A DNA stretch of 64,000 nt from a virus: IMG/VR virus record IMGVR_UViG_3300050821_018577, positions 114,859 through 178,858 of that record, one strand, 5' to 3'. The notes under the pieces were generated by a model. That model ran no database searches. It was not told the DNA's origin and was given only the letters and a program-made list of their open reading frames with translations. Position numbers and translations under genes: made by a program. How positions within the stretch are numbered: the first letter of the stretch is position 1; every line of letters begins with the position of its first letter. Positions 2,587 through 47,587 of the stretch are shown here, piece by piece.

Positions 2587-5500
2587 AGCAGGCACGCCAG
2601 GGGCCTCCTTGGCGTCGCAGTATCATGGAATTCAAGTAAGCAATTCCGTCTACGGCAAGACCGTCAAATTGCTGTACGGGCTTACGCAAGCAGCTCCCGA
2701 CTTGATTTGGTACAACGATTGGAAAACTGGAAGCTCGCCAAGCAATCAACTGCTGGCATCGCTCTTGCAGGGCGGAGGCAAGAAAAGTTCAAAAGGAAGC
2801 AAAAAAGGTAGCGTCAAATATTATTCCGCAGCGGTCGACCTATTGATTGGACACGCTCCGATTCTTGGAGTGTTTTCCGCGTGGTACAACAACCAGAAAT
2901 TGGCAGTGGTCATCAACAGCGCCTCCGGCTTGATTAGCGGTGGCTCGTTTACCTTTGTTCCAGCGAATCAGCCAAGCCAAATCGTTGTCGGTTTCACAGT
3001 CGGAGGCTCCCCGTATCAGGTGACCGAGCCGAATTTCGTTGCCGACCGCCGCGTACGTGACGCCACGCTTGGAGATAATTTCTACCTTGGACGCGCCAAT
3101 CCATCCGGTTTACCAGGTCCAAATCAATACACGGTCACAAGCGGTGGCCTGTACACTTTCAATGCCGTACAGTCCGGTCATTCGCTCAGGATCACCTATT
3201 TCACTTCCGCTTCCGGAAGTCCTTCGACTTTAGTGGGCATTCTAGCCGTCAGCATTCACGAGGATTTTACTGCGGCGTTTAACGATTATGGCGCGCCAGG
3301 TTCCATAACACAGTATGGAACTTGGGAACGCCCGCTATGGAATGCGGCCTTTGCTGTGCCAGGCCGCATCGATTTGGGCGCGCCGCATGCCCGCGACCCC
3401 TACACATGGGCTTGGGACGGCGTGACCCCGGCTGTGACTCTCCCGACCGCGCTAAACGGAAAAGCTATCACCGTCTATTACGGAACGCCGGTTATCTTGC
3501 GGTCAGACGGCACATTGTTCTCGGCGACGCATACGCCGCTCAATGTTCTGAACTTGCAATTTGAACAGATACTGGGCTCCGGATCCGAATACACGAATTT
3601 TATCGCCCAACAAATACTTCAAAATTGGGCGGCCGGCGCCGGGTCGGTCCGTTTCGACCTTGGCGTGTCGAACAGCATGCCGAATTTGAATTTGGAATGT
3701 ATCGGAGCATTCACGCAATGGCCGAACGGAGACTGCGATGTCGTGGATATGATTGCCGACATTGTAGCGAGCGGTCCGTTATTCCTCACCCCATCTGGCG
3801 GAAACAGCGATTTAGACCATGCAACCACGAAGACTGGTGCCGGGTTATCGCAAGCCGGAGGCGTGCTTCCAACCGTAGTGGATGCGCCTTCTGGCACGCC
3901 TGAACTCGAAGTGATGGTCACTACGACAAGCCAAGGCCAGCCACAATCCCCTGGCACGTTTTTTGCTTTAACGCAAGTCGTGGGCGCTACCCGCGTCTAC
4001 AGTTTTTCTTCGTTCGTCGGTCCTGCTCCAGTAGCCGGGCAAACGGTCAGCATTGCGAATTTTGCCAACGCCGCCAACAACGGCCTCTTTACCATAACGG
4101 TGGTAACTGGTAACTCGAGCGGAGGAACCTTTACCGTTGGTAGCGGATCGCAAGTAAATGAAACGACGGCTGCGCAAGGATACTCTCCGGACGCTACTGC
4201 ATTCGTGTTGACTCAAGTAGTCGGCTCCACGAAGACGTATTCTTTCTCTTCCTACACTGGGTCAGTTCCCGTCGGCGTTGGACAGTATGTAACGATTACC
4301 GGATTTACTAACACTGCCAACAATGGCTTTTTCCCCATAACCGCATTTACCGGAACATCCACCGGAGGAACGTTCACCGTCGGAAGCGGGTCGCAGGTAA
4401 ATGAAACACACGCCGCGACGGCTTCGACTGGCTGGCAAGAAGTCACCAGTCTTCCGATTTGGTATCAATTATTGAATTCCACTGCTCCTGTCAGCGTGGT
4501 TCAGCCCTATTCGTCCAGCCTCGGGTTCCCGACAGCAAACGTAAACTTTGCGCAAGTTCTTGCATGGTTTGGCGCAACTGGCGGCAATCCCATTTGGACA
4601 CAACATTCCAGTCGTACCGGGTCCAATTCAGCTTCTTACACATTAGGACCTTTCACGCCGACTGCAGGCGAAACTCTATTGTTGATGTTCAGATTGCGCG
4701 ACCTGGGCTTCGGCTTGTTCACGAGCCCATGCGTATATTCGGTAACGGATGACCAGGGGAATCTTTGGAATCTGATTGCCAACGTTTCCACTGTGGCCGG
4801 CGGTGGCAGCAATCCTGGCGCGCAGACAATGCTTTTCATGTGTCAAGGACCAGCCCTAGTATCTACAACCGTCACCTGCCAACAAACCTCCGGACCAACT
4901 GCTGGCAACGTGAGCGACATAAATTATTTATTTGGCATTACGAATTTCGCGTCCGCCACGGTCACACCCATCGGTCATGGAGTGAACTGCAACACGTATG
5001 GAGCGGTCCAAAGTTCAGCGGGCTCCACGACTTCTCCGGGGAATGGCCTTCTACTCACAGGGCTTGAGCAAGTGCGGGCTTGGTGTCGGGCGAACGGAAT
5101 TTCTGGCGCGCTCACACAGGATGCACAGCGGTCGGCAAAGGATATGGTCGACGAATTACTGACCGTTGCAAACGCAGCACCAGTCTATTCCGGCGCTACG
5201 CTTAACACCATCCCTTACGATGAGGTCAGCAATGCCGGTGGAGGGTTGGTCTACACCGCATCCACAGCAGCAGGTCCGGTTGCAAATCTTGCCGACCAGG
5301 ATTTCGAGAACGATGATGGCAAGACGCCTCCAGTATCGTTTTTGCGGAAGCGCCGTGCGGACTGCGATAATGTGGTCTCTATCGAATTTCTTGACCGTTC
5401 GCTCGATTATTCCAAGAACACGATTTCCGAGGTTGACCAAAAGGCAGTCACGCTCTATGGCCCGCGAAAAGGTGGAACGCTTTCGGCGGCCGAACTTGGC

Positions 5501-19652: not shown

Positions 19653-19773
19653 TCCTGGTACTGTGTTGCTTACATGTTAGCTCAATGGTAGAGCAACTGC
19701 CTTCAAAGCAGTCGGTTGCCGGTTCAAATCCGGTACACGATTCCCCGTAAGGGGAGCAGCGCGACATCCAGGA
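19653..19773 (+). ncRNA. Y-RNA-like unit A (non-permuted tRNA core, UCA anticodon loop)
   Basis: TCCTGG/CCAGGA closing stem, TACTG..TACATG and CGACAT motifs, D-anticodon-T arms inside. Confidence 0.75.
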
Positions 19774-20988: not shown

Positions 20989-21064
20989 GGTAGGAGAAGC
21001 CAAACGGCGCGGCTCGTGACTGTGAATCACGGTTTAGCGGGTTCGACTCCCGTTTCCTACCCCA
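20989..21064 (+). tRNA. tRNA-His(GTG) with encoded G-1:C73
   Basis: Cloverleaf, loop CTGTGAA, CCA. Confidence 0.9.
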
Positions 21065-41938: not shown

Positions 41939-42013
41939 AGGAGAGTAAGATAACGGTAGTCGCCGGGTCTCCAAAACCTTGGAGTGGGGGTTCGAATCCT
42001 CCCTTTCCTGCCA
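41939..42013 (+). tRNA. tRNA-Trp(CCA)
   Basis: Loop CTCCAAA, G73, CCA. Confidence 0.85.
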
Positions 42014-42206
42014 AAGTTATTTGGTGCCGTGATGGAGGTTACGAACAAGAAGCCATGTTCGAGCGGAAAGCGAAAGATTCTTGACAGGCCTTCCGCAGAA
42101 GCTTCGGCTGAGCGGCGCACTGAGGCATTCGGACCCAGATTCGTTTATAAGTGTGGGGAATGCGGCTATTATCATTTGACAAGCCGCCGCCAGCCACGGA
42201 GTCGCA

Positions 42207-42845
42207 ATGAGCAACGTGCGGATCACGAAAGAAGGGCTGAAATATTTTGAAGGTGACAGCGTCGAGCTGGTTCGCACGTTTCTCGGTAAGTTGCGTTGTA
42301 CCTGCGCGATTGACCTGGGCGTGACGCTTGGCGATATCTTTGCGGCCGTTGAACGAGACAGGCCGTTGAAACATTTTATTGGCGGCTACTCCTGGTGCGA
42401 TATGGACGCATTCCACCAGGAGGCCAAGCTGCCATCGGCGAAACCTTCGGACTTGTTGTACATCGATGTTTCATCGCATTTTGAGTTCGGAGAAGGTTGG
42501 ATTATCGACGTGCATGGAATCGGCAAAGATGAGCACGCTATGGGAAACCGTTCTTACGCAATCGATTTCACGCCGGTCAACGATTTAGCGCATTTGGAGG
42601 TACGATTGACTGAGGAATGTGCCGTCTTTGACGAGAATTTAAAAGAGATTGGCAAATCCAAGGTTTATTTTTCCTTGCTCGACGTTCTTGGCGAGATTTA
42701 TTTTGAGGTCAGCTTCCATGGCAATCCGCGAGACAGGAACGAAAAGTCCGCAGAACTATTGCAAGCGGTAAAAGAGATAGAATCCGGCGAAGCGAAGCTT
42801 ACGCCATGGGAGGATCTGAAACCCAGCAAGACGACAGTAAATTGA
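42207..42845 (+). CDS. hypothetical protein
   Basis: 212-aa ORF between tRNAs. Confidence 0.6.
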   Translation: MSNVRITKEGLKYFEGDSVELVRTFLGKLRCTCAIDLGVTLGDIFAAVERDRPLKHFIGGYSWCDMDAFHQEAKLPSAKPSDLLYIDVSSHFEFGEGWIIDVHGIGKDEHAMGNRSYAIDFTPVNDLAHLEVRLTEECAVFDENLKEIGKSKVYFSLLDVLGEIYFEVSFHGNPRDRNEKSAELLQAVKEIESGEAKLTPWEDLKPSKTTVN

Positions 42846-42849
42846 GTTC

Positions 42850-42935
42850 GGGCCCTTGGCGTAATTGGCAGCCGCAGCTGGCTCAAAATCAGCCGCCCTA
42901 GTGGCGTGAAGGTTCGAGTCCTTCAGGGCCCACCA
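42850..42935 (+). tRNA. tRNA-Leu(CAA)
   Basis: Long variable arm, loop CTCAAAA, CCA. Confidence 0.92.
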
Positions 42936-43086
42936 AATTCAGGAGAAGCAATGGTCAAGAGAGTTAACGAGCAAGCCAAGAAAAAAGCGGCAAGGCAAAT
43001 CGCTGAAATCGCATACAGTTACTTGGCACAACTTCCCGAGGCGGAACAGGAGCGCCGAATAGAACGTATTGAGAAAATAAAGATTC

Positions 43087-43162
43087 GGTCCCGTCGTCCA
43101 ACTGGATAGGACATCGGCCTCCGGAGCCGACGACCGCGGTTCGACTCCGCGCGGGACCGCCA
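43087..43162 (+). tRNA. tRNA-Arg(CCG)
   Basis: Loop CTCCGGA, CCA. Confidence 0.92.
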
Positions 43163-43182
43163 TGAATTTGCGGAGGATAACG

Positions 43183-43431
43183 ATGACGAAACGGCCAATC
43201 GAACCGAGGGACCGATACCAGGAGGGCCAATCGGCTGAGCCGCAACCAGATGTTCATGACACCATCACTGGCGGTGTGCCTGGCCAACAAGTCATGCAAA
43301 CCACGGAAGTGAAGGCTCCTGAACCTGAGACGAAATCAGTGCAGCCAGCGTGTGGCGAATGCGGGAGTACGGCCATCGAGATTAGCGGCGGGATCCGCCA
43401 TTGTACGAAGTGTGGCCATGCATTCGCTTAA
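43183..43431 (+). CDS. disordered protein with C-terminal Zn ribbon
   Basis: PACGECGS..GG..CTKCGHAF. Confidence 0.6.
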   Translation: MTKRPIEPRDRYQEGQSAEPQPDVHDTITGGVPGQQVMQTTEVKAPEPETKSVQPACGECGSTAIEISGGIRHCTKCGHAFA

Positions 43432-43440
43432 AAGAGATTT

Positions 43441-43515
43441 GCTTCCGTCCCGTAATGGATAACGGCCCTGACTACGAATCAGGTCATGGAGGTTCAAGTC
43501 CTCTCGGGAGCACCA
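43441..43515 (+). tRNA. tRNA-Arg(ACG)
   Basis: Loop CTACGAA, CCA. Confidence 0.9.
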
Positions 43516-43524
43516 GATTGTCAT

Positions 43525-43600
43525 AGGGGATTCGCCAAGCGGTCTAAGGCACTGGTCCTACAAACCAGCATCCCGAGTTCGAATCTCGGATCCCCTACCA
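43525..43600 (+). tRNA. tRNA-Val(TAC), C33, Gln/Cys-like body
   Basis: Stem CTGGT/ACCAG, loop CCTACAA, A73, CCA. Confidence 0.75.
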
Positions 43601-43607
43601 AAAGTTT

Positions 43608-43692
43608 GCGCGAGTGGCGTAATGGCAGCCGCGGCAGTCTTAGGAACTGCTGTCCTTGTGACGTGGAGGTTCGACTCCTCTCTCGCGCACCA
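43608..43692 (+). tRNA. tRNA-Leu(TAG)
   Basis: Long variable arm, loop CTTAGGA, CCA. Confidence 0.92.
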
Positions 43693-44292
43693 GTTTAGGA
43701 GCAGAAAATGAAACCGCAGAACAAAGCAGAAATCCGGAAAGAAATTGCAGCGCGTAAACGGATCAACCGGAAAGCGGAACGCAAACAATTCGGATGCACC
43801 GTTCGCGTGACCGTGAAAACGGCATGAGCTACATCATTCCGATTCTTCTTGCGGTTCTGGTCGCGCGCATCGGGAGATTCTTCGCTTCAACCGGTAGCAC
43901 GCGCCCTGAGCATTGGGAGAAAACGTGGCGGTGCGATTCGACAACCGAAGTTTCTTCGTGTGGCGCGATATGTCATCGCATTCGTGGCCATTGGGGCTCG
44001 CATCGTACTGCATCGAGCGGAGCGTTGGGCTGGTATCATGAATGGAAAGGTGAAGGCAAAGTCGTCCGCGTTATAGGGCTCGGGAAAACATATGAGGTCA
44101 GGGACCGTCACTACGGCGGAGGCACTTGCGTATAGAACCTTACTTGCGCTGGCATCCAGTGACGGGCGGTTATGTGGGGCAAGCCGAAATTTGTGTCATG
44201 GCCTCGCGCATTCCTGATTCTGATTGTTATCACGAATTGAATCGGCTTACGATGGAGAGGGTCCACGAAATTGCGTTGGAAGATAAAGTTTC

Positions 44293-44380
44293 GGGAAAGA
44301 TGGACGAATCGGCTAAGTCCACCAGTCCGTAAAACTGGCGCTCTGCGAGCATGTGAGTTCAACTCTCACCTTTCCCACCA
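44293..44380 (+). tRNA. tRNA-Tyr(GTA), C33
   Basis: Long variable arm, loop CCGTAAA, A73, CCA. Confidence 0.88.
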
Positions 44381-44394
44381 GTTGGAGGTTTGTT

Positions 44395-44568
44395 ATGAGC
44401 CATGAAGTTTTAATCAGGCGCACGATTTACGTTTCGGAATGCGAATGCGGCAGCCGCGAAGAACGCACAGAGAATCCGCCAAAAGAGCGCCTGTGCCCAT
44501 GCGGCAAGTGGGTGCCGTTCCAAGAAGTTTCTTACACCGGCCCGGAATTGGCGAAAATCAAACTTTGA
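44395..44568 (+). CDS. small Zn-ribbon-like protein
   Basis: RBS GGAGG; CECG..CPCG. Confidence 0.55.
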   Translation: MSHEVLIRRTIYVSECECGSREERTENPPKERLCPCGKWVPFQEVSYTGPELAKIKL

Positions 44569-44643
44569 CCCAGGTTAGCTCAACGGCAGAGCTCCGGCTT
44601 GAAGCACCGGCGATTTTCGGTTCGACTCCGAGGCCTGGGACCA
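44569..44643 (+). tRNA. tRNA-Phe(GAA)
   Basis: Loop TTGAAGC (G37), CCA. Confidence 0.85.
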
Positions 44644-44781
44644 TTTTACTCGCGCACCGTTCGCCGTTCGAGTGCGCGGGCATTAACGGCGCGTTGAGCA
44701 ACCAACGACATTGGCCAACCACAAACCTCGTGATATGTAGGGGTGACAGTCGGGAGAGACCGGCAAACGATTGGAGGATCG

Positions 44782-45378
44782 ATGCTCAAACAAATTAGCG
44801 CCGGATTCCTGTTTTTGTTTCTGGCCGGCAGCGCCTATGGCCAAGCGATGCAACTGCCTCCGGCTGGCGACCCATGGTGGGATTCCGATGCAGGCCAAGG
44901 GTTCATTGCCAGTTATGAAGGCACGCCGTGGTTTGAAGCGCTGGCATCCATGTCGAACTGCGACCAATCGTTGTGGAAGCATGTCTACAAGCCGAAGCGC
45001 CTGGTCGTAAAAGCTGCGTGCGTCACGGTGACGGGAACGATCGAGGACGCCACAGCCACAGAAAAGACCCATCACAAGGATGGCCAGCGCCACGAAGGGG
45101 ATGGTGACGGCCACGGATGGCTGAAACTAGACCCCGGCCAGGAGCAATATCTCAATGCAGGCAATAAGAGCAACGAAGGCGGAAATCTGGTGTTTGAGGT
45201 CATCTGCCAGTTTCCGGTCCGCCAGGCCGATGCCAAGGCCGCCTGCAAGGGTTATAAGAATACGGTGAAGATACCGCCGGTAGGGTCGCATGTTAAAATC
45301 ACTGGTCCCTGGGTGCAGGATAAAGAACACCAGAAGTGGTTCGAGATTCATCCAGTGACGAAGATAGAAGTGATTTGA
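44782..45378 (+). CDS. exported protein
   Basis: Signal peptide; YKPKRL..C..V.G, HEGDGDGH, WFEIHPV. Confidence 0.65.
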   Translation: MLKQISAGFLFLFLAGSAYGQAMQLPPAGDPWWDSDAGQGFIASYEGTPWFEALASMSNCDQSLWKHVYKPKRLVVKAACVTVTGTIEDATATEKTHHKDGQRHEGDGDGHGWLKLDPGQEQYLNAGNKSNEGGNLVFEVICQFPVRQADAKAACKGYKNTVKIPPVGSHVKITGPWVQDKEHQKWFEIHPVTKIEVI

Positions 45379-45382
45379 TTTC

Positions 45383-45458
45383 GGTGGCGTGGAGGAAAGG
45401 CTAACTCACTTCCCTGTCACGGAAGAGACTGCGGGTTCGAGCCCCGTCGCCACCGCCA
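45383..45458 (+). tRNA. tRNA-Asp(GTC)
   Basis: Loop CTGTCAC, G73, CCA. Confidence 0.9.
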
Positions 45459-45466
45459 AATTCTGA

Positions 45467-46102
45467 ATGGTCAGAGGAACGCACAACCTGTTTGGCGACG
45501 AAGCGGACGCTCTTGTTGCCGTGGAACGTCAATTGGAGTTCCTTGCGCACTATGAGAAATTCCAGAGATTCATTCCGAGTAGTTTGGTGGAAGCATCGCT
45601 GCTCGATGGACAGACCGGAGACAACCGTGTTTTCCGGTTCAAGGATCTCGGCGACCGCGAATTGATGCTGCTTCCAGAAGTTACTGGAGTCGCGCGCCAA
45701 TGGTTTCGTGAACACGGAAAGGCGCTGCCGAAGCCGGTCAAGCTCTATTACACGGCGCGCTGCTATCGCTATGACCGACCGCAACGCGGACGCTATCGGG
45801 AGTTCACGCAGTTCGGTATTGAGATGATGCCGTCGAACGGCGCTGGGCCAGCAGAGATACTGCCTCGATGGCTGGATTATCTCGGCCTGTTTTATGAATT
45901 TCGCGATGGTGTCGACCGCGGGCAGGCGTATTATAGCCGTAGCGGCTTTGAAATTTGGGCGGCAGGAATGCAAATCGCCGGCGGCGGCCCCTACGGAGAG
46001 GGCGCCGGCTTCGCCATCGGGATCGAGCGGCTAATGATTGCGCTCGAGGAACAAAAAGTTTCTGGCTCTGTAGCTCAGTCTGGAAGAGCAGCGGGCTCAT
46101 AA
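45467..46102 (+). CDS. minimal HisRS/HisZ-like class II aaRS catalytic core
   Basis: LPEVT, CYRYDRPQRGRYREFTQFGIE (motif 2), RGQAYY, GGGPY, GFAIGIERL (motif 3); no anticodon domain; 3' end overlaps tRNA. Confidence 0.85.
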   Translation: MVRGTHNLFGDEADALVAVERQLEFLAHYEKFQRFIPSSLVEASLLDGQTGDNRVFRFKDLGDRELMLLPEVTGVARQWFREHGKALPKPVKLYYTARCYRYDRPQRGRYREFTQFGIEMMPSNGAGPAEILPRWLDYLGLFYEFRDGVDRGQAYYSRSGFEIWAAGMQIAGGGPYGEGAGFAIGIERLMIALEEQKVSGSVAQSGRAAGS

Positions 46103-46140
46103 TCCGCGCGTCGTTGGTTCAAATCCAACCGGAGCCACCA
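46064..46140 (+). tRNA. tRNA-Met or Ile2 (CAT)
   Basis: Elongator body, loop CTCATAA, CCA. Confidence 0.88.
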
Positions 46141-46155
46141 GTTCGGAGAAGTCAG

Positions 46156-46341
46156 ATGGGTTTATTCATAAAAGAGATAGACACGGAATGGCATTTCGGC
46201 GAACCAATTCCAATTATCCGCGAGAGGGTTGTCACCTTCCAGGCAGATGGCCATGAATTGGATCTCATCCTTGCTGCGATGAAACGGACGACGCGACCGG
46301 TTATCGATGTGGAACCGTCGCCGGCAGTTCCGCATTCCTAA
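46156..46341 (+). CDS. hypothetical protein
   Basis: RBS GGAG, between tRNAs. Confidence 0.5.
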   Translation: MGLFIKEIDTEWHFGEPIPIIRERVVTFQADGHELDLILAAMKRTTRPVIDVEPSPAVPHS

Positions 46342-46348
46342 AAGTTTT

Positions 46349-46434
46349 GGAGAGGTGTGGCGAATGGTAAGCCAACGGTTTGCTAAATCGTCGTGCGAAA
46401 GCACATGCAGGTTCAAGTCCTGTCCTCTCCGCCA
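46349..46434 (+). tRNA. tRNA-Ser(GCT)
   Basis: Long variable arm, loop TTGCTAA, G73, CCA. Confidence 0.9.
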
Positions 46435-46593
46435 GCTATGAAGATAAAGATACTCGGTCTGCTTCCGCCCAAGCGTTTCATGAAGCGGTTTCGCCGCGAG
46501 CAAGAGATTGCGAAAAAGATTACGGCGAAGCTGAAACGTGATAAGATTCGGCCATGACAAACGAATCATCATCGCACTCTCCATCGAACCGGT

Positions 46594-46681
46594 GGAAGAG
46601 TGGCCGAGGTGGTCAAGGCGCTAGTCCCGAAAACTAGTTCACCTTCGGGTGTTGTGGGTTCGAACCCCACCTCTTCCTCCA
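46594..46681 (+). tRNA. tRNA-Ser(CGA), C33
   Basis: Long variable arm, loop CCCGAAA, U73, CCA. Confidence 0.85.
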
Positions 46682-46751
46682 TTTATCTTTCCTGACACTA
46701 ACAAAAAGGTTTTCTTGACTTTGGAACGAAAATTGCCCAATGATTGCGTCC

Positions 46752-46976
46752 ATGGCGCAAATAGCGCCCAGGGCAATCAGCCTAGACGTTCACCGCATGA
46801 AGCTCTCGCCAGAGAGCCAGGCCCGAGTTATCCATCTTCTGTTTGTCAATGAATTAAGCGTGGACATCGTAGCCCAGCGCATGGGTGTCGGCAAAAGCAC
46901 AATTCGTAGAATTCAAATGGCGCATTGTGAGAAAGTGGATGCGCGAAAGCATCTTGACAATGGCGATAGACGCTAG
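46752..46976 (+). CDS. small helix-turn-helix protein
   Basis: LSVDIVAQRMGVGKSTIRRI. Confidence 0.65.
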   Translation: MAQIAPRAISLDVHRMKLSPESQARVIHLLFVNELSVDIVAQRMGVGKSTIRRIQMAHCEKVDARKHLDNGDRR

Positions 46977-46993
46977 CCACGTTATCGTATAGG

Positions 46994-47587
46994 ATGCCAG
47001 TCATGTCAGAACCTGTAGTTCGAACGGTCCCGATCGCGGATCTTCTGCCCGACCCTGAAAATCCAAATAAGGGCACTGTCCGCGGCAGAAAACTTCTTAA
47101 GAACTCTTTGAAGAAACTTGGCGCTGGCCGGTCGATTTTGGTCGACAAAAACTTTACAACTGTGGCAGGCGCGAAAACGCTTGAAGAAGCAAAAAAGGAA
47201 GGATTCGAACGCGTCACTGTAATCGATACCGACGGGAAAACGCTCGTCGCTGTACGTCGTACCGACCTGGATACCGGCGACAAAAAAGCTCAAGAGTTAG
47301 CAGTTGCCGACAATGCAGTAGCATCATTTGACTTATCCTGGGATGCGGAAGTTTTGAAAGAGAGCGAAGCAGACCTAACTGAATATTTTGAGCCGCTGGA
47401 GCTCGACCGGCTTTTGAACGATGGCAAAAATAGCCGGCAGCCCAACACGATTGATTTGCAGCCGCCGCCAAAAAAGGTTTGGATCCTGCTCGGCATACCG
47501 TTCAATCGATTCGACGTTGTGCAAGAACACCTCGCGGCACTTGAGGCCGAAGCGGAAATCTCGGTGCAAAGCGCGAGAGACAAATAA
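46994..47587 (+). CDS. ParB-like N-terminal domain protein
   Basis: LLPDPENPN..SLKKLGAGRSILVD..VAG..LAVADN. Confidence 0.7.
   Translation: MPVMSEPVVRTVPIADLLPDPENPNKGTVRGRKLLKNSLKKLGAGRSILVDKNFTTVAGAKTLEEAKKEGFERVTVIDTDGKTLVAVRRTDLDTGDKKAQELAVADNAVASFDLSWDAEVLKESEADLTEYFEPLELDRLLNDGKNSRQPNTIDLQPPPKKVWILLGIPFNRFDVVQEHLAALEAEAEISVQSARDK

Follow-up and report, generated by a model that had tools for sequence, protein, structure and literature searches.

The case for a class II aminoacyl-tRNA synthetase functioning in nature as a bare catalytic core has so far rested largely on engineered fragments and urzymes. Histidyl-tRNA synthetase (HisRS) without its anticodon-binding domain, and even without the insertion region, still activates histidine, as is the case for the Ncat fragment (residues 1-320) and for the engineered E. 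coli HisRS urzymes 1-4 of 119-145 aa (PMC3060492). In the solved tRNA complex of T. thermophilus (Tt) HisRS, the tRNA contacts both subunits and the insertion domain (residues 172-228) clamps the CCA end; mutants in the insertion contact residues R197 and K209 retain at least half of wild-type activity (PMC4357726). A natural precedent for minimal class II cores is offered by the GlyRS-B alpha-like 'urzymes' from a genome database (PMC11602164). The subject of this analysis is a HisRS-like protein, here called mini-HisRS, from a phage. As far as the papers show, it is a known enzyme in a new architecture, widespread, annotated only automatically and apparently undescribed: no description of a short phage HisRS was found in the literature, jumbo-phage papers included, and neither PHROGs v4 (best E 0.19) nor PADLOC holds a family for it.

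The window analysed here (64,000 nt) is the final 64 kb of a 178,858-bp IMG/VR record which is rated complete by CheckV and whose source assembly comes from soil metagenomes. Among the sequencing runs listed, the phage occurs in three DNA runs, all from soil, and in no RNA run. The record encodes a tail-tip protein, RecT and 34 tRNA genes. As the initial annotation had stated, mini-HisRS sits between tRNA genes, with tRNA-Asp upstream and tRNA-Met overlapping its 3' end:

45383..45458, + strand: tRNA-Asp(GTC), its 3' end 8 nt upstream of the mini-HisRS ATG
45467..46102, + strand: mini-HisRS ORF, 211 aa; residues 1-199 are the conserved core and residues 200-211 a read-through into tRNA-Met
46064..46140, + strand: tRNA-Met(CAT), sharing 39 nt with the 3' end of the mini-HisRS ORF
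20989..21064, + strand: tRNA-His(GTG), the sole one in the phage, with encoded G-1 (20989), C73 and CCA

The mini-HisRS frame lacks its own stop codon, continuing for 12 codons into tRNA-Met and ending at a TAA in the anticodon loop. The gene of its closest relative, the copy at locus L169, likewise overlaps a tRNA, in that case tRNA-Ile (gene end 1729, tRNA start 1706). Cutting of tRNA-Met by RNase P would strip the stop codon and leave a non-stop mini-HisRS mRNA. No Shine-Dalgarno motif was found before the ATG, where the CCA of tRNA-Asp is only 8 nt away (45459-45466). Such motifs precede ~47% of the phage's long ORFs compared with 17% of random sites, and the L169 copy has a GGAG upstream. 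A promoter and terminator scan of 42000-47200 gave counts at chance level. The same tRNA array contains, between tRNA-Phe and tRNA-Asp, another 211-aa ORF (44743-45378) whose N-terminus resembles a signal peptide and which matches no Pfam family. The phage also carries tRNAs with stop-codon anticodons, namely CTA (called Pyl), TCA (called SeC) and a four-base CCTA (C1 47038-47297 in the genome and 19671-19744 in the window).

Residues 5-125 of mini-HisRS match Pfam PF13393 (tRNA-synt_His; 1.5e-12), and NCBIfam hisS (TIGR00442) matches in two stretches (2.9e-30, 105.6 bits; 85.4 bits in the genome search) without reaching its curated cut-off of 286.75. The hisZ profile (TIGR00443; 1.8e-16, 60.1 bits) falls under both its own cut-off of 271.65 and the hisS score. 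The scores lie under the curated cut-offs because about half of each profile is without a counterpart in mini-HisRS. Phmmer alignments against the PDB pair residues 3-133 and 134-199 with 6-145 and 240-323 of S. aureus HisRS (1qe0), and residues 2-124 and 132-196 with 6-135 and 240-319 of T. thermophilus HisRS (1adj). From the jump to ~240 and the end at ~323 it follows that mini-HisRS has neither the insertion region nor the C-terminal anticodon-binding domain, and these gaps, together with the 211-aa length of the ORF, bear out the original description of a ~200-aa HisRS core without either domain. Set against P0145, the closest full-length relative (423 aa, HGTP_anticodon), mini-HisRS is missing 148 to ~240 and 325-423. 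It has thus lost the insertion domain, one flanking helix-strand unit and the entire anticodon-binding domain; the gap of ~95 aa between motif 2 and HisA equates to T. thermophilus 136-239. Pfam finds no HGTP anticodon-binding domain (PF03129) in the protein, nor in the whole phage genome.

An ORF that runs into tRNA-Met, has no Shine-Dalgarno motif and scores under the family cut-offs might be taken for a decaying, functionless fragment of a captured hisS gene, trimmed by tRNA insertions. We give that reading almost no credence. The comparison with the L169 copy (84% identical, dS near saturation) yields a dN/dS of 0.06, which shows purifying selection, and the same architecture recurs in over 100 clusters of 185-260 aa and in 80 viral loci, with no full-length intermediates. 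The first protein search returned 122 clusters, mostly of 185-225 aa or shorter through a late start call. Matches of 145-170 aa were considered as a possible split form and set aside, since most are members of this family whose start codon had been called late. Among 1.84 billion representatives, a profile search recovered several dozen single-stretch proteins of ~190-285 aa, merging at lower ranks into two-stretch, full-length HisRS of ~400-460 aa. IMG/VR holds 94 confirmed loci, and all 80 of the 80 that were kept have short ORFs (145-277 aa as called, 180-290 codons from stop to stop), many of them on contigs of 250-675 kb. In a quick, unrooted maximum-likelihood tree, 60 short proteins fall on one side of a branch (SH-aLRT 99) from the 40 nearest full-length HisRS. 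Several ESM Atlas clusters, each with at least 50 members of 170-225 aa and automatic names only, come from Uroviricota, Pseudomonadota, Acidobacteriota and candidate phyla. Longer members were examined as possible informative fusions and rejected, since what lengthens them is a domain-free extension at the N- or C-terminus, or an intein: in P0143 (564 aa), an intein with a LAGLIDADG endonuclease is inserted after the motif 1 region of a mini-HisRS. Close copies occur in quite different contexts, and the structural model is confident and compact (see below). Judged by its selection and distribution, mini-HisRS is a maintained family and not a remnant.

The initial annotation had reported that motif 2, the RGxxYY and GGxY loops and the GIERL motif are kept, unlike in typical HisZ; all of these were found. 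The active-site elements are as follows:

45656..45685, + strand: motif 1 strand with the histidine alpha-amino contacts (R64...L68 L69 P70 E71 V72 T73), equivalent to T. thermophilus 74-83; P70, E71 and T73 are invariant in 37 relatives
45749..45823, + strand: motif 2 with its loop (Y95...R101 Y D103 R104 P Q106 R G R109 Y R111 E F113 T Q115...E119)
45917..45934, + strand: HisA loop RGQAYY (R151-Y156), aligned with RGLDYY of solved HisRS; R151 and Y156 are invariant, G152 and Y155 at least 90% conserved
45980..45994, + strand: HisB loop GGGPY (G172-Y176); G172, G173, G174 and Y176 are invariant
46001..46033, + strand: motif 3 GAGFAIGIERL (G179-L189), aligned with solved HisRS and including the ATP gamma-phosphate arginine R188; G179, G181, G185 and R188 are invariant

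Motif 2 reads CYRYDRPQRGRYREFTQ (residues 99-115) and GFAIGIERL occupies residues 181-189. Across the alignment of 37 relatives, whose identity goes down to 32%, the invariant positions are P70, E71, T73, Y95, R101, P105, Q106, G108, R109, R111, E112, F113, Q115, G117, E119, R151, Y156, G160, E162, Q169, G172-G174, Y176, G179, G181, G185 and R188. With T. thermophilus numbering taken from the phmmer alignment and residue roles from the tRNA complex (PMC4357726), the motif 2 block corresponds to R112, E114, R115, Q117, R120, R122 and E130. The histidine pocket residues T83, E130, Y264 and G304-F305 are covered by conserved columns (here T73, E119 and G181-F182), and the ATP-binding arginines are also among the invariant ones. 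Mini-HisRS thus has the class II motifs 1-3 with catalytic arginines, the HisA and HisB loops, and the Thr, Glu and Gly-Phe pocket residues by which HisS is recognised.

The residues that contact the end of the tRNA are kept as well. At the A76 and G-1 5' phosphate contacts, Tt E114 is D103 (D/E in the family), R115 is R104 and R122 is R111, while Tt R7 is R3. The cross-subunit G-1 pocket loop, DRGGR in T. thermophilus, is D-L-G-D-R here (F-K-D-L-G-D-R, before the motif 1 strand) and F-x-D-(K/R)-G-x-R family-wide. Tt E64, which was reported to be essential for aminoacylation, is R54 in mini-HisRS and Q in distant members. From the conservation of these residues, and from the adjacency of tRNA-His genes described below, we infer that mini-HisRS activates histidine and aminoacylates tRNA-His.

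The hisZ match, and one ESM Atlas cluster auto-named as an ATP phosphoribosyltransferase regulatory subunit family, could be taken to point instead to a non-catalytic regulator or sensor, acting like HisZ with HisG or like the HisRS-like domain of GCN2, which would bind histidine or uncharged tRNA and steer host metabolism or the stringent response. The hisS profile outscores hisZ by far, and R101, R151 and R188, which are ATP-binding or catalytic, are invariant. Such catalytic residues commonly drift in HisZ, which also retains the insertion region. Nor is there a HisG: the complete 178,858-bp record gave no PF01634 match, in line with what the initial annotation had noted, and the control search was positive in 14 of 14 control genomes. 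We therefore consider a regulatory role highly improbable.

An AlphaFold2 model built with the 37 relatives is confident (pLDDT 91.5, pTM 0.87) and shows a compact class II sheet, so that the structure prediction suggested at the outset returned a HisRS-like fold. In the PDB it comes closest to E. coli HisRS (1htt/1kmm; TM by query 0.83), with catalytic domains of PylRS ranking next. Modelled as a homodimer, mini-HisRS scores 0.85, compared with 0.00 for the best of three controls; the mark is reached by 20 of 30 proteins solved as same-chain pairs and by 1 of 23 solved as single chains, and, since HisRS dimers have already been solved, the pass may reflect memorised structures. Three dimer runs agree in at least 96% of contacts with a partner pLDDT of at least 84, and place the interface at residues 1-17, 33-42, 54-66, 75-83 and 93-112. 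The modelling supports, but does not show, homodimerisation. Ncat HisRS of E. coli, according to what Augustine and Francklyn reportedly found in 1997, is far less active and monomeric. Among small phage proteins in BFVD, K7QJG2 (Escherichia phage phAPEC8, 190 aa), A0A6J5M2P2 (222 aa) and A0A2I7SAH4 (185 aa) have class II synthetase-like cores that match at a TM by query of 0.6-0.67 and 11-16% identity, and may represent further families of mini synthetase cores.

The predicted interface, consisting of the N-terminus and the motif 1 region, is that of the HisRS dimer, and the solved complex has tRNA touching both subunits. Mini-HisRS might then act via the host HisRS, forming a heterodimer through the motif 1 interface either to borrow the host's anticodon-binding domain in trans or to poison or retune the host enzyme. 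We think this quite unlikely. Identity to cellular HisRS is only ~30%, a mere poison would not need invariant catalytic residues, and, because the family occurs in phages of very diverse hosts, a single interface would need to suit many host enzymes.

To describe the gene neighbourhood, all ORFs within 5 kb of the gene were clustered in 65 non-redundant loci. None of the neighbouring protein families is conserved as a partner, the most frequent one being present in 6 of the 65. Families found near the gene include the PF09414 RNA ligase (6 loci), other class II synthetases (4), Metallophos_2 (4) and also homing endonucleases. tRNAs lie within 10 kb in 44 of the 65 loci, and the nearest one is tRNA-His in 11 of these 44, where 2.8 would be expected (Poisson-binomial P about 1e-5, uncorrected for the shared ancestry of loci). 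In five loci (L015, L017, L019, L023 and L042) tRNA-His starts 7-55 nt past the mini-HisRS stop, and in L066 it is likewise the nearest tRNA. The tRNA-His genes that adjoin mini-HisRS encode G-1 opposite C73. In the present phage the tRNA-His is 24 kb upstream and not adjacent; its C73 faces a G at 20989, just as the initial annotation had said of its G-1:C73 pair, its CCA is encoded, and it is the presumed substrate. The survey of tRNA-His co-occurrence proposed there thus gave an excess of tRNA-His as nearest tRNA, but some phages with the gene have no tRNA-His: a complete 92.6-kb phage yielded no tRNA at all in a tRNA search, and two others have tRNAs with no tRNA-His among them. A phage-encoded tRNA-His is therefore not required, and in such phages a host tRNA-His or another acceptor must serve.

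These phages lend some weight to an acceptor other than tRNA-His for the activated histidine, be it a small molecule, a protein or another RNA (cf. GluQRS, EpmA and AsnA), or to a reaction of His-AMP with ATP giving Ap4A-type dinucleotides. The active site is whole while both accessory tRNA-binding domains are gone, and some copies lie close to phosphoesterase genes. Chromosomal copies outside any phage or tRNA context occur in Pseudomonas, Chromobacterium and Myxococcales; those of Pseudomonas (L094 4965-6992 in Pseudomonas cerasi, and similarly L095, L097 and L100) are flanked by a GNAT acetyltransferase and a Metallophos_2 phosphoesterase and adjoin a TauD dioxygenase and a type VI secretion IcmF gene, with no tRNAs nearby. 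As noted above, Metallophos_2 is also near four phage loci. Class II synthetases make Ap4A, and ApaH is a metallophosphoesterase. Against such an acceptor, the whole family retains the motif 2 loop arginines and acidic residue at the G-1 phosphate and A76, residues that a tRNA-free enzyme could do without, the link to tRNA-His genes is significant, and no carrier protein or partner is conserved (best neighbour family 6 of 65). We regard this alternative as unlikely; were it correct, mini-HisRS would be a new truncated synthetase paralogue with some other product.

The suggestion that mini-HisRS might charge cleaved tRNA halves fared poorly. The present phage encodes no PF09414 RNA ligase, and elsewhere the association is weak (an RNA ligase within 5 kb in 6 of 65 loci). 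One of these cases is the 642-kb phage LR756502 (L005 2319-4579), in which a 210-aa copy has a PF09414 RNA ligase gene on both sides; there, the flanking ligases may tie mini-HisRS to tRNA repair.

A genomic setting that fits the charging of tRNA-His is that of Sinorhizobium phage Phosso (469 kb), whose 196-aa copy (XYS97181.1) is annotated as 'histidyl-tRNA synthetase' and lies 276 nt downstream of a G-1:C73 tRNA-His. The phage carries a second tRNA-His, of host type, at ~429.2 kb, with no G-1, G1:U72 and A73:

PV764938 (loci L004 and L170), 3746-3820 and about 429192-429265: the tRNA-His genes of Phosso

Several jumbo loci (also L013, L015, L017, L019 and L028) have such a second tRNA(GUG) without G-1 and with G1:U72 and A73, and in the jumbo phages with both kinds the G-1:C73 tRNA-His tends to adjoin mini-HisRS. 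The pattern of no G-1, G1:U72 and A73 has been published for Rhizobiales, Rhodobacterales, Caulobacterales and Parvularculales; Rhizobiales, the order of the Phosso host, are among the groups with members that lack G-1, and Caulobacter HisRS is 250-fold poorer at charging E. coli tRNA-His than at charging its own tRNA-His (PMC3064791). Given this difference, a phage tRNA of the G-1 type would do little for the phage unless it came with an enzyme to match. Because a G-1:C73 tRNA-His lies near the gene and a host-type tRNA-His is carried too, the arrangement in Phosso suggests a self-contained enzyme/tRNA pair. No full-length HisRS was found in five jumbo phage records (three rated complete and the complete Phosso genome among them); the same five contain other class II synthetase-like frames, at least two of which match the anticodon-domain end of the profile. 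In Thalassospira and Pararhizobium, copies of the gene sit within tRNA arrays. A search of the Pararhizobium genome that used a G-1-less tRNA-His as query did not reveal the host's own tRNA-His. The array near mini-HisRS in Pararhizobium sp. BT-229 (L089 4324-4401) includes a tRNA called His(ATG) by ARAGORN and two tRNA-His(GTG) of differing acceptor types.

An alphaproteobacterial host lacking G-1 was also considered for the present phage, and is unsupported by the relatives of its tail-tip protein: the sole named ones are Acidobacteriota MAGs (37% identity), and matches to cultured phages are at ~30%, to Pseudomonas, Brevundimonas and Acinetobacter phages. The host is probably an acidobacterium rather than an alphaproteobacterium, in which case mini-HisRS would here supplement the host HisRS and not replace it. 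The rationale of an orthogonal pair fits Phosso and some jumbo phages, and not demonstrably the present one.

Taking these lines of evidence together, we lean towards mini-HisRS being a dimeric, anticodon-blind enzyme that charges G-1:C73 tRNA-His. In this scheme a homodimeric class II core, which has dispensed with the insertion and anticodon-binding domains and retained the full histidine/ATP site and motif 2 loop, would form His-AMP and pass the histidine to tRNA-His, reading the tRNA by its acceptor end only, through G-1:C73 and its 5' phosphate. The substrates in the present phage would be its own tRNA-His (20989-21064) and probably host tRNA-His too, and the outcome would be a supply of phage His-tRNA that does not depend on the host enzyme. 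Anticodon-blind charging had been put forward in the initial annotation; residue invariance, tRNA-His adjacency and the Phosso pairing speak for it, and it stands as a reading of sequence and genomic context. More tentatively, mini-HisRS and its G-1:C73 tRNA-His could constitute a portable and self-sufficient histidine-decoding cassette. Its ~200-residue, anticodon-blind enzyme would read only the -1 pair and would let phages use their own tRNA-His whatever the host, even in alphaproteobacteria where HisRS no longer recognises G-1.

If tRNA-His is indeed charged, a class II synthetase works naturally as a bare catalytic core of ~200 residues. That histidine permits this would be explained by the identity of tRNA-His residing in the acceptor end, which makes an anticodon domain unnecessary. 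Such an enzyme and its tRNA would offer genetic code engineering a very small anticodon-blind pair; if the cassette reading holds, the pair would be orthogonal ready-made, and its enzyme would to our knowledge rank with the smallest natural aminoacyl-tRNA synthetases. Large phages would have a common, unrecognised member in their translation module. Phosso can be cultured and lends itself to a test, since its host's synthetase would not be expected to act on the phage G-1 tRNA.

With canonical HisS (TIGR00442; 1KMM, 1QE0, 4RDX), mini-HisRS shares the class II fold, motifs 1-3, HisA/HisB, the histidine pocket, the motif 2 loop arginines, the G-1 pocket loop and, as predicted here, the motif 1 dimer; in motif 2 it has the GRYREF wording of archaeal-type HisRS. 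It differs in its length (~200 as against ~420 aa), in its shorter loops between HisA, HisB and motif 3, and in the replacement of Tt E64 by R or Q. HisZ (TIGR00443) is likewise a HisRS paralogue without an anticodon-binding domain, but has 300-390 aa and HisG as its partner, whereas mini-HisRS is found without HisG, has invariant catalytic residues and scores 45 bits higher with hisS than with hisZ. The catalytic domain of PylRS (2Q7E and others), the next-best structural match (TM by query 0.73, sequence match 7e-6), is also a compact class II core; its amino acid pocket is different, whereas mini-HisRS has histidine-specific residues and the HisA/HisB loops. PylRS is also anticodon-blind. 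The GlyRS-B alpha-like proteins concern another amino acid and a single genomic record, whereas mini-HisRS is a broad phage and bacterial family linked to its tRNA. The term 'urzyme-like', used in the initial annotation, is loose: class II urzymes as defined by Carter and co-workers have 120-145 residues, comprise motifs 1 and 2 and in some cases motif 3, and have nothing between motifs 2 and 3, whereas the core here is 199 aa, keeps motif 3 and between the two motifs retains HisA, HisB and three further strands, so that its size lies between the 320-aa Ncat and the 119-145-aa urzymes. The HisRS-4 urzyme consists of residues 10-134 and motif 3, and its N-terminal block is nearly that of mini-HisRS (PMC3060492). 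Compared with these engineered proteins, mini-HisRS is natural, conserved and under selection, and it keeps the HisA/HisB loops that the urzymes do not have while dispensing with the insertion that Ncat retains.
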